Shown here piece by piece: positions 57,432 through 64,000 of a stretch of 64,000 nt of DNA (positions are counted from its first letter, which is position 1; every line of letters starts with the position of its first letter). Both the position numbers and the translations under genes were made by a program. The notes under the pieces are model-generated. The model was not told the DNA's origin. It was given only the letters and a program-made list of their open reading frames with translations, and did not search any database. The DNA lies in the NCBI GenBank assembly GCA_965153355.1, contig OZ231126.1, positions 33,666,001 to 33,730,000 on the forward strand. Direction: 5' to 3'. The stretch is from Flaccisagitta enflata. Taxonomy: Eukaryota.

Positions 57432-60400
57432 TCGCGTACCCATACTCTTTCAAGATTTTCGTCAACATTCCATCAGATGGATTTGCGATTGTTGTTCTGG
57501 AAAATGGCGGGAAAATCGAACAAACCGGGAATTACGGAAACTCATTTTGGACGCCAAAAAGAGAAGAGGACAAAAGATCATCGATGCAATACAAAGGAAG
57601 GAGAAAGAGGAAAGGGTCGAAGAGGAGGAGGAGGAAAAGGCCGATGATAAGGATGGAGGAGGGAAGCAGCCTCAATTACAAAGCGTTCAGGGAGTTGCCT
57701 CCGATCCGCAGCAGTCACCCGGAAGGGGAGCATCTCAGCCAAGCGTCCGAGCGGGCGAGTCGCGGCGTAGCGACGAAATTGCCGCATCGGCGTCTCCATT
57801 GATGCAAAGAGCGTCGCCGACGGAGAGAAGCGCGAATCGCGCGAAGCACAACGAAACCTCGCTGATGAGGATCGACGAGGAGGAGGAAGAGGAGGAAGAA
57901 GATGGAGACGGCCAAGATGGCACGGATTACAACGATTTTGAAGAGGATGAGAATGATTTCCAGGATAATGAAAGCCTCAACCAAAACAACAACAATGACA
58001 ACATTGAAGACGAAGTAGACGACGACGGCGACGACGACGACGATTTCAACAACAACAACAACAACAACAACAACAACAACAACAACAACAACAACAACAA
58101 CATCAACAACAACAACAACAACAACAACAACAACAACAACAACAACAAGCTAAGCAATAACAAGAACAACAACAACAAGCTAAGCAATAACAAGAACAAC
58201 AACAGCTGCGGGGACTATTTTCACGATAATATCGAGGAAGATATTTACAAGAAGGATCATAAAATCAATTATTCTGGCGCCAGCCATCATTGGGTACCTA
58301 CCATCGAGGATAATGTTAAGCAAGGTCTTGACGCCGTGGAGCAGCGGCGAAGTAAAATCGAAACGTTGTCGTGTTTGATCAGCTCTGACGAGATGTTGCG
58401 GTTGGAGTTCATTTGGGACAGCATCTGCGTGTCAAGGAGGAAAATCTGTCGTGATTTAACGACGGAAATTGTAGAGGGAAAAATACAAGGAATTGCCATG
58501 AGGGATATCTGCCAGGTGATAGAGAGAGAGAGAGAGAGAGAGAGAGAGAGAGAGAGAGGACAGAGAGAGAGGACAGAGAGGGGAGACAGAAAGAAAGAAA
58601 CAAGGAAGGAAACACAGGAAACAAGCATAAGGCAGAACAACCAATTGTTTTATTCAACATCAACTAGTTTGATGAATATTGACTTCACCAGTATTTTCTA
58701 GCTTGATCCAAAAAGATGCAATAATACTTATCATGTCCACGGATGAAGTTGTACTTTTCACTTGTGTTATAAGATTTTAGAAATAAATTCTTATTTAAAT
58801 TTTTATTCCCCTAAAAAACGTCAATACATTTCAAACACAGTAATCATCCCAGGAATCAGGTCGAAATGAAAAGAAGAATCGTCGCAAAAGCGTTAGATAG
58901 TCAGCGGTACCCGTGCCCTGCTTAAGTTGGTGTGATAAATGAGAGGCAGGGTTGCGCTGACCAGGTCGATGACCTGTGCTTTCACACATATAAATTTTCT
59001 CTCTTTCTTCTCCTTCTTCTCCTCCACATCCCCCTCCCCCAGCCTCTGGGCCCATGTCTCAGCCTCGAGGCCCATATCCCAGCCTCAAGGCCCAAATCCA
59101 AGTCTTGAGGCCCAAATCCCTAGAGACTGGAATCTTGGCCTTGGGGTTGGGATTGGAGCGAGTTGGATTTGGCCTCCCAGGTAGGATTTGAGCCTCAAGA
59201 CTAATTTGGGCCAGAGGCTGGATACCTCCAGGCTGAGACATGGGCCGAGGCTGGGGAGGGTGCGAGGAGAGGAGGGAGGAAAATTCCCATACGTGTGAAA
59301 GCATAGGTCATCGACACCTTTGGGGCCGCTGCCCAAAAAGAAGGTAAAAAGAAAAACAAGGCCGGATACACGGCTACCCAAGTCGCGTGCGGGTGGGCAG
59401 GGGCAGTGATAAAATAGACCAGTCAGGCAGTTGGGCAGGGCCTGTAACCCCAAAACCACCCGTAAATTCCGAAAAAGCAAAGTGTTACCGACCGACCGAC
59501 CAACCGACCAACCGACCAACAGACGGACAGAGTGAGTTGTAGAGTCGCGTGCACGCGACTAAAAAGAATCGTCACAAAAGCGTTAGATGGTCAGCATGTA
59601 CCTGTGCCCTGCAGTAGGTTAAAGTAGCAGGGCAGGGGAAGGGAAGAGTCGACCAACTGTGCTTTCACACATATGAGGAGGCCTTCTTCTTCCCCTCCTC
59701 CTCCTCCTCATCCACCTCCCAGCCTCGGCCCATGTCCAGCCTCAGGCCCATATCCCAGCCTTGAGACCCAACTCCCAGTCTTGAGGCCCAAATCCCTGGA
59801 GGCTTGAATTTGGGCCCCGAGGTCGGGATTTGGGCCTTGAGGTTGGGATTTGGGCCTCAAGACTATGATTTGGGCCTCAAGGCTGGGATATGGGCCTCCA
59901 GGCTGAGATATGGATCTCGGGGAGGAGGGGGGGTACGGTGGAGGAGAGGAGAGAAAGAGGAGAAAATTCATATATGTGAGGCATAGTCATCGGCCCCTTC
60001 AAAAAGGAAAAGAAAAGAAAAAAAAAAGAAAAATACAAAAATAGAAAATTAAAACAATAGAAAAATAGAGAAGAAAGGAAACAAGTGACGCGGGGTCACA
60101 ACATCGATGCGGACGGGTAGGCAGGGGCATCCAAGCCCTATTCACACCCCAACCCACCTCCAACACTCAAACATACACAAAAAGTATCGAAAACGCTCAT
60201 TTTCAACTCGATCACCATGACGGAAGGACTGACGGACGGACCGACCGACGGACCAACCGACAGACCAACGGACAGACCAACGACGGACAGACAAAGCCTC
60301 TTATAGAGGAAATGAAAGTTATCATCGATCCGTTGTTTGAGTCACTGTCAATCTCCAACCATAAACTTACTTCCATGTTTCAGATTGATGCATACATCTC

Positions 60401-63400: not shown

Positions 63401-64000
63401 GTTGTAGTCATATTTGTTGTTGCTATTGTTACTACCTGAGGTTAATCTCTTATTGATCCGCATAAGGTGATCCTGCCAAGAAAGATCAAATCCTCGTCCT
63501 TTGTGGAAATTCTGGAATCTTCTGAATTTCTTGACCGTTTCCGTTATCTGTTCCCGCTTCTCAACGTCGTCGTCGACAAAGTCGACTTGACAGCATCAGA
63601 GAGTCTAGTCGACGCCATCATCAACTTCGACGTCGAGATTCGATCCTGTTTCGTCAACTTCCGTCACGAAGAATTTCGAGTTTTTACCGACGCCCTCGTC
63701 AGTTGTCTCCGTCAGAAGGTGCTCTCGACGCCTTCGAAAGAGAACCCAAAGAAGATGCGAGATGCGGACGCGGAGCGCCTCGTCGACGAATTAGAAGCCT
63801 TTGGAAAATTCCTGGACTTCTTGGAGGAAGCGATGGACGACCGGCTGCGGGCAATGGAGGCGAAAAGATGGCAGTGGGCGAGGCTCGTTGATGAAAAGCA
63901 GAAGCAATTTGTGGAGGATGAGCGGAAGAAGCTAGTTGTAGAGGAGGATGAGAAGGGAGAAAGCCAACGAGGAAAGAAAGACGGGAGAGGCGATCACGAA
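57432..64000 (+). CDS. Protein with acidic/poly-Asn linker followed by two tandem degenerate globin-fold-like domains; exons ~57432(or 57455)-58515, 60384-60554, 62699-63001, 63467->64000; incomplete at both ends
   Basis: Three phase-0 GT-AG introns, last exon open to the window end. Domain 2 reads FSAMERQRIKKLWSQI (A) / VLRAWFIAAPALRQKV (B-C) / ILESSEFLDRFRYLFPLLNVVVDKVD (E) / NFRHEEFRVFTDALVSCLRQKV (G) / ELEAFGKFLDFLEEAM (H). Confidence 0.7.
60654..61975. mobile_element. Non-autonomous TIR DNA transposon (~1.3 kb) in an intron
   Basis: ~29-bp TIRs taacagggtgagcaggaaatttggcacaa / ttgtgccaaatttcctgctcatcctgtta; similar flanks (tagacc..); internal 14-bp repeat tacaatatctctga at ~61167-61238; no ORF. 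Confidence 0.8.

Follow-up and report, generated by a model that had tools for sequence, protein, structure and literature searches.

Globins that lack histidine (His) at the proximal position F8 have been described in several animals. As presented in PMC7457136, HbB of Daphnia pulex carries Val at F8 and HbC, HbE, HbF, and HbK carry Tyr, the ostracod globin HbL2 of Puriana combines Met at CD1 with Val at E7 and F8, and hexapod androglobins are given without the E7 and F8 His. The Drosophila pseudoobscura protein EAL28093 (641 amino acids, aa) has a globin region at 40-150 for which PMC1457004 reports no suitable F8 His. Bacterial non-heme globins include the RsbR N-domain, Bacillus kinase sensor domains, phycocyanin, and photoglobin (PMC8717448, PMC7475203), and a Synechococcus NOS carries a pseudo-globin (bioRxiv 10.1101/2025.08.15.670619). 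His F8 is conserved in the cnidarian and amphioxus globins treated in PMC6077788 and PMC3087553, and tandem multi-domain respiratory globins are described from Branchipolynoe, Barbatia, and ascarids (PMC4503718). Here we describe a gene at the end of a 64,000-nucleotide (nt) stretch of the Flaccisagitta enflata genome (contig OZ231126.1, 33,666,001 to 33,730,000, forward strand; hereafter “the window”), which encodes a large modular protein whose second helical domain very probably has a globin fold and lacks His at F8, as a first-pass annotation of the window had claimed. The same annotation held that heme-less globins are mainly bacterial or phycobiliproteins, which the arthropod cases above contradict.

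The explanation that we put forward, and hold with even confidence, is that the gene encodes a scaffold-type intracellular protein with two tandem globin-derived domains near its N-terminus, in which the pocket of domain 2 was lost and the globin modules were repurposed. Domain 2 would keep the 3-over-3 helical sandwich while having lost the heme-binding set (His F8, Phe CD1, and His/Gln E7), would most likely bind neither heme nor O2, and may serve in dimerisation or protein interaction by means of its G and H helices, the parts conserved in relatives, which run into a long helix. The disordered remainder would recruit partners, possibly protein kinase A (PKA) by way of an anchoring helix.

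Positions below are those of the window (G000:C1:33666001-33730000) and continue past 64000 in the same numbering (add 33666000 for G000:C1); the genome assembly examined comprises 794 Mb in 9 contigs. The exons and domains concerned are as follows.

57802..58515, + strand: coding part of exon 1 from the first in-frame ATG; acidic, Asn-rich low-complexity N-terminus, then helices A-B of putative domain 1
60384..60554, + strand: exon 2 (57 aa); helices E to G of putative domain 1, with the profile-based F8 at the Tyr codon 60492
62699..63001, + strand: exon 3 (101 aa); helix H of putative domain 1, a linker of ~30 aa, and helices A-B-C of domain 2; Trp A12 at 62918 and Pro C2 at 62984
63467..64000, + strand: in-window part of exon 4, which continues past the window to 64598
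58378..62779, + strand: domain 1, a putative degenerate globin domain (~134 aa over three exons), from a glocal hidden Markov model (HMM) and block threading, with mixed results
62882..63850, + strand: domain 2, predicted globin-fold domain without canonical heme ligands; long G-H loop; the H helix continues as a long helix
63467, 63536, 63674, and 63800, + strand: marker residues of domain 2 (Val CD1, Arg E7, Phe G5, and Phe H8, respectively), placed by threading and alignment
63629, 63638, 63641, and 63644, + strand: F8 candidates of domain 2 (Asp, Ile, Arg, and Ser, respectively); the register varies by method

The gene is real and spliced. Its four exons, those named in the first-pass annotation (exon 1 ending at 58515, then 60384-60554, 62699-63001, and 63467 onward), have AG/GT ends, all introns between them are phase 0, and they join into a single continuous frame. 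RNA evidence was drawn from 4 of the 24 listed runs, the contigs coming from three marine metatranscriptome runs of one study; these contigs cover the exons, and cover introns mainly at repeats. One contig (X2 record 9) skips 2144 bases that equal the predicted intron 60555-62698 between exons 2 and 3, another (X3 record 21) skips 465 bases that equal the predicted intron 63002-63466 between exons 3 and 4, and a third (X1 record 1) spans 58201-58433 in exon 1. The exon 1-2 junction is absent among the listed contig pieces, and the raw reads of run X24 gave coverage at repeats only. Although the search tool warns that RNA libraries may contain DNA, a contig without the intron points to spliced RNA.

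Predicted globin fold of the second domain

The globin fold of domain 2 is argued for by a structure prediction made with ESMFold2 without alignments, in which residues 56-101 of exon 3 and residues 1-135 of exon 4 were submitted as two separate pieces with heme included. The pair scored 0.72 against 0.31 for the best of three controls, contact agreement between runs was at least 91%, and the predicted local distance difference test (pLDDT) was at least 81 for the partner and 73-74 for the other chain. In calibration, 51 of 78 solved microbial pairs attained the mark, as did 2 of 108 mismatched ones; for eukaryotes the figures were 71 of 105 solved pairs and 2 of 126 unrelated ones. These counts are only rough with a ligand present, and ligand placement is unscored. 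Two halves of one domain may pass this test through likeness to solved structures, and here that likeness is the point of the test. Helix A (Ile70, Leu73, and Trp74, at A8, A11, and A12) is packed against Ala111, Phe112, and Phe115 of helix H and against Val36 of helix E, whereas helix B places Val87 and Trp91 against Phe73, Ala76, Leu77, and Cys80 of helix G and Leu88 against Phe25 of helix E. Since packing of A on H, A on E, B on G, and B on E characterizes the globin fold, the predicted contacts of domain 2 are of globin type. A conserved Gly-Lys-Phe helix was also considered as helix F and was rejected, as ESMFold2 packs it on helix A as helix H.

Two further lines of evidence agree. Block threading used a profile of six helix blocks built from 29 bacterial globins and 6 globin exons of the same genome, and it set all six blocks where the first-pass annotation had placed them (anchored at A12, C2, E11, G5, and H8); its score was equalled by 2 of 500 shuffled sequences and 1 of 156 natural decoys. 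The motifs quoted in that annotation are present, and its assignments of Trp A12, Phe B14, Pro C2, Val CD1, Phe E4, and Arg E7 hold; MAFFT independently aligns Arg24 of exon 4 with the E7 column, Phe54 with F4, and Phe70 with G5. In the ESM Atlas, the top three clusters for exon 4 carry the globin family PF00042 in 27, 64, and 53% of their members (scores 0.89, 0.88, and 0.85, where a score below 0.9 counts as a lead only), the top two share 172 and 173 of 256 features with the exon, and all 10 of the best family-bearing matches agree on the globin family. The nearest clusters consist of eukaryote, nematode-rich globins, which suggests independent loss from an animal heme globin.

Several results weigh against this assignment. 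Pfam and NCBIfam gave no globin match on single exons and sub-pieces, so that the Pfam check proposed in the first-pass annotation was negative on single exons, and the ESM Atlas returned no globin for exon 3. Searches of PDB sequences with exon 4 and two small alignments found nothing relevant, and hmmsearch and hhalign comparisons of the spliced domains with a bacterial globin profile were not significant; the reference profile is mostly bacterial and weak because a search aimed at animal globins yielded none. Under the glocal HMM, which penalizes long loops, 28 of 200 shuffles scored at least as high as domain 2, as did 10 of 142 natural decoys once true globins had been removed from the latter, and the ESMFold2 run gives nothing on the location of heme. 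This locus is also missing from the listed matches of a genome-wide globin profile search (PF00042). One might hence suppose that neither region is a globin and that both are generic all-helical domains resembling globins through hydrophobic periodicity, as the uniformly negative curated-profile searches, the ESM Atlas scores below 0.9, and the misregistered helices of MAFFT in small alignments would allow. We regard this as quite improbable, since the alignment-free ESMFold2 contacts fit globin packing residue by residue, and since the threading ranks and the family agreement in the ESM Atlas speak against it.

The first-pass annotation had also suggested AlphaFold modelling followed by Foldseek. 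Exon 4 alone, corresponding to helices E-H, was modelled by AlphaFold2 at a pLDDT of 47.6 and a predicted TM-score (pTM) of 0.33; Foldseek returned no match at E ≤ 0.001 for this model, and VIA-align gave generic bundles, with no globin among 50 rows. A second model, made with a globin-containing alignment and thus biased by design, reached a pLDDT of 73.7; Foldseek again returned none at E ≤ 0.001, a cytoglobin had the highest query TM-score among the listed rows (0.49, E 9.2), and the VIA rows concerned mainly residues 60-131, with no globin among those listed. The E-H half shows helices right in number and order, in models too incomplete for fold searches, and such half-domain searches neither demonstrate nor rule out a globin fold. 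In both models helix H extends 30-45 residues further. Taken together, the models and threading make it very probable that domain 2 has a globin fold, a 3-over-3 helical sandwich.

Heme pocket, proximal position, and relatives

Domain 2 contains a single His (His67, where helix G begins), whereas two occur in domain 1, in helices G and H; neither domain has one in helix F, and His at F8 is missing in both domains under every register tried. In the pocket of domain 2, Val stands at C2+6 (CD1) and Arg in the E7 column, and Phe CD1 and His/Gln E7 are absent. His67 was tried as F8 and rejected, as it displaces helix G and is Leu in the relative P0004.

The identity of the residue at F8 depends on the method. 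The F-helix profile alone prefers Asp55 and then Ile58, the latter fitting Phe54 at F4, whereas the MAFFT His column falls on Ser60 and the cytoglobin spacing of 11 residues between F8 and G5 points to Arg59. The first-pass annotation had named Ile; the absence of His stands, and Ile58 is one of these four registers. The fragment P0004 has His at exon-4 position 59, within the uncertainty of F8, which counts against loss of the proximal His throughout the family. A register with F8 at 59 needs an acidic F4 (Asp here and Glu in P0004, where reference globins are hydrophobic) and, with the His column left aside, is outscored by Asp55 and Ile58, so that Ile58 is favoured as F8 and the P0004 His would lie one position along. 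Phe54 and Ile58 are both bulky and lie on the face of helix F that is normally turned toward heme.

Few relatives are available. Four matches, one of them near-identical, were found among 1.84 billion representatives, and homologue searches returned only P0001 and P0002. P0004 spans helices F-G with a match of 55%. In P0002 and P0003, helix H and its extension are retained at 58-61% and little else nearby is, apart from two short downstream motifs in P0002. A metagenome pattern scan gave 82 matches, none of them confirmed, and all 8 matches to an H-helix pattern lay in unrelated contexts. Across P0002, P0003, and P0004, the F-G and H helices are thus conserved at 55-61% amid diverged flanks. 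Selection that acts on G-H and not on the pocket would suit a surface for dimerisation or for binding a partner, of the kind found in non-heme and sensor globins, and a scaffold or dimerisation role is, in our estimate, as well favoured as disfavoured.

These observations bear on whether the gene still has a function. A former globin gene drifting as a decaying relic would account for the loss of all three heme-pocket hallmarks and for the scarcity of relatives. This is very improbable given the intact 1432-aa frame over seven modelled exons, the spliced RNA-library contigs, the conservation of helices in three fragments with diverged flanks, and the 29 listed differences between RNA and genome in exon 5, none of which introduces a stop.

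For this genome, and for this genome only, the loss of the canonical ligands is firm. Given a globin fold, the protein probably binds no heme at all, and the ordinary His-F8 globins encoded elsewhere in the genome mean that O2 binding is covered elsewhere. The label “heme-less” in the first-pass annotation consequently holds for the missing His, while the loss of heme itself is a step beyond it, with the P0004 His inside the F8 uncertainty and Tyr or Cys near F8. Other heme ligands near F8 are possible from the aligned residues, namely Tyr in domain 1 and Cys61 in domain 2, and a relative may bind heme.

The protein might alternatively be an unorthodox heme or ligand sensor, in which another residue serves as ligand (Tyr F8 in domain 1; Cys61 or Arg59 in domain 2), His59 is proximal in relatives and replaced by Arg only in this lineage, and the long H helix relays a signal as in globin-coupled sensors. 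The His of P0004 lies exactly 11 residues before G5, as in cytoglobin, profile tests place Tyr at F8 of domain 1 as in the Daphnia globins (PMC7457136), RsbR-type globins are described as binding fatty acid via Arg at the proximal position (PMC8717448), and the continuation of helix H in both AlphaFold2 models would suit signal relay. We nevertheless consider such a sensor unlikely, because, besides the acidic F4 and lower score of that register, P0004 conserves Phe54 and Ile58, positions CD1 and E7 hold Val and Arg, the Arg59 codon (CGA) is two changes away from His, and P0001, which comes from another source, also has Arg at position 59. It would be bolder still, and we rate it as distinctly improbable, to see here an animal counterpart of bacterial non-heme globin sensors, with tandem domains in which heme was swapped for a lipid, fatty acid, or tetrapyrrole, signalling via the extended H helix to a PKA-anchoring arm, and a family caught at the switch (His near F8 in the relative, Arg here).

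The first domain, the remaining protein, and the genomic setting

The scaffold explanation counts two globin-derived domains, and the evidence for the first is mixed. When domain 1 is aligned to the glocal HMM without forcing, helices A, B, E, F, G, and H fall on it in sequence and few gaps are needed; none of 200 shuffles and 4 of 162 natural decoys attained its score, which also exceeded that of the reversed sequence. By block threading, domain 1 beat all 500 shuffles and 178 of 179 decoys. Against this, reversed domain 1 threaded better than domain 1 itself (-13.2 vs -21.4), and the similarity between domains 1 and 2 is not significant (35 of 500 shuffles; hhalign E 0.6), even though their global alignment matches the two A helices to each other, with Trp on Trp, and brings together similar motifs in helix F. 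Domain 1 could accordingly be an unrelated amphipathic helical region, leaving only domain 2 as globin-derived and no tandem. The threading of the reversed sequence and the insignificant similarity to domain 2 would agree with that, as would the lack of any relative covering domain 1 in searches among which none against protein collections had domain 1 as its query. The ordered glocal alignment, which no shuffle matched, and the paired A helices and F-helix motifs speak for a globin origin instead; we regard an unrelated first region as rather unlikely and lean, with some reserve, toward a globin fold for domain 1.

The first-pass annotation described domain 1 as an eroded globin without F8 His. 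No His occurs in helix F, and the fold itself is suggested by sequence tests that disagree, the reversed domain doing better in one of two. The C-D region is short, as had been noted; “lacks most of the C/D region” is apt against what we take to be the spacing of myoglobin-type globins, whereas the A12-E11 spacing equals that of the bacterial single-domain globins in our alignment. F8 would be Tyr by profile and could be Ile when aligned by eye against domain 2, E7 would be Tyr or Gln depending on the alignment, and no CD1 is assignable.

The gene continues well beyond the window, its frame staying open for 938 codons, with the following features.

64599-64832 (L007:6399-6632), + strand: in-frame, repeat-rich intron of 234 nt, placed from RNA-library contig ends; contigs start at 64831
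64833-66260, + strand: exon 5, mostly low-complexity; two RNA-library contigs end at 66260, suggesting a donor after 66260
65081-65134 (L002:3081-3134), + strand: PKA-anchor-like amphipathic helix, from a motif scan
66641-66835 and 67107-67462 (L002:4641-5462), + strand: two candidate last exons, placed from splice signals only

At the 5' side, the frame is open from 57337, with a candidate acceptor at 57477 and the first in-frame ATG at 57802. An out-of-frame ATG immediately follows the acceptor at 57477, which could serve for splicing or trans-splicing upstream of the coding frame. The intron 64599-64832 reads through without a stop, and its retention would add 78 residues. Modelled from ATG 57802 over seven exons, the protein comprises 1432 aa with one terminal stop and is mostly low-complexity; the candidate last exons give it a Cys-rich, acidic tail with 18 Cys in the last 170 aa. 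This tail may be metal-binding; the last frame has no Pfam match. No paralogue occurs elsewhere in the genome. The first-pass annotation suggested looking for further domains past 64000; neither there, in a search of 112 kb (best other E 0.62), nor in the remainder of the genome was another copy of either globin domain found, and we conclude that this is a single-copy gene for a protein of ~1430 aa or more. The three phase-0 introns lie at ~E4.0 and G18.0 in domain 1 and at C7/CD1.0 in domain 2 (helix numbering of this analysis), away from the metazoan globin positions B12.2 and G7.0, as had been stated.

A mostly low-complexity chain with a PKA-anchor-like helix is consistent with the scaffold role proposed in the first-pass annotation. 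PKA anchors are described as amphipathic helices of 14-18 residues with hydrophobic residues at 2, 5, 6, 9, 10, 13, 14, and 17 (PMC12083921). The helix at 65081-65134 is hydrophobic at 2, 6, 9, 10, 13, 14, and 17 and has Thr at 5, thereby matching the pattern with Thr accepted; the pattern was set after the helix was seen, and shuffling the exon-4 frame 1000 times produced such a match once. RIIa docking domains are encoded in the genome. The helix presumably resembles a known mammalian anchor. It has no Pfam or PDB match and no relative covers it, which counts against the assignment, and PKA anchoring through this helix is a tentative suggestion from its residue pattern.

Other features of the window and genome were recorded. 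An innexin exon lies at 27446-28570 on the + strand (PF00876, E 3.5e-28), a sign of invertebrate animal DNA. Near-identical frames occur ~14 kb apart at 529-1283 and 14469-15208 (- strand), as do 3114-3389 and 17063-17341, forming a direct duplication in the window. The long open frames at 31572-33809 (-), 30262-31164 (-), 36208-37560 (+), and 39801-40631 (+) are mostly low-complexity and have no Pfam match over the cut-off. The next gene downstream (L003-L004, 78163-87314 in extended numbering) looks by eye like a BCCT-type transporter. On another contig, two divergent His-F8 globin exons, L008 and L011 (G000:C4:60965167 and 60942836, - strand), lie 22 kb apart with some of the usual introns missing; L011 apparently has Leu at E7, and the two are either tandem genes or one multi-domain globin. 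Several genes have a similar copy on the opposite strand of their contig, 110-200 kb away (L009/L010, L013/L014, L139/L140, and L145/L146); these may be inverted segmental duplications or assembly artefacts.

Comparison with described globins

The arthropod globins without His are alike in being animal globins for which O2 binding is doubtful and another function is suspected. Those of Daphnia are described as monodomain, whereas the present pair is a putative tandem that escapes Pfam, within a mostly disordered protein of ~1430 aa with non-canonical introns. Androglobin is likewise a large animal protein of chimeric make-up whose globin domain is degenerate; its calpain domain and IQ motif were not found by Pfam on the exons here, and the helices of this gene run in the normal A-H order rather than being circularly permuted. 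Matches to the androglobin family PF22069 occur elsewhere in the genome and not at this locus, and the gene is not androglobin. EAL28093 also places a globin-like domain without F8 His in a much longer protein; it has one domain, recognized by FUGUE, and is compared by description.

The bacterial non-heme globins share the use of a globin fold without heme as a sensor or structural module in multi-domain proteins, and differ in being prokaryotic or algal; no STAS, kinase, or enzyme output domain was found here. With respect to RsbR, Arg59 is one candidate for F8 and is His in P0004, and the exons have no Pfam match to the RsbR family or to an output domain. Neuroglobin chains account for 10 of the 43 weak rows listed by Foldseek for the exon-4 model (E 2-5, near-identical variants), and the start of helix E and the A12-E11 spacing of domain 2 presumably match neuroglobin closely. 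Domain 2 differs from neuroglobin and cytoglobin in lacking His at both E7 and F8, in an E7-to-G5 stretch that is longer by 3-4 residues, and in its long G-H loop.

Globin surveys demand His F8 to call a globin, as stated in the methods of PMC1457004, and Pfam misses this locus; conserved animal globins without His may consequently be undercounted. No report of a tandem His-less globin scaffold was found in the literature searched, which misses most subscription journals and the supplements of PMC7457136, where further cases may exist. The reach of the present case is limited by few relatives and a putative function. Like the tandem respiratory globins, it would be an invertebrate chain in which duplication has placed globin domains side by side; the respiratory ones bind heme and O2, whereas here the canonical ligands are lost and the pair is flanked by long low-complexity regions. 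Animal globins without His are thus already known, and the putative tandem pair in a scaffold-like protein would be the new aspect. A transcribed and conserved example, together with a His-bearing relative, provides a direct test of what an animal globin fold does after heme ligation is lost, a question left open for the cases in Daphnia, ostracods, and insect androglobins.

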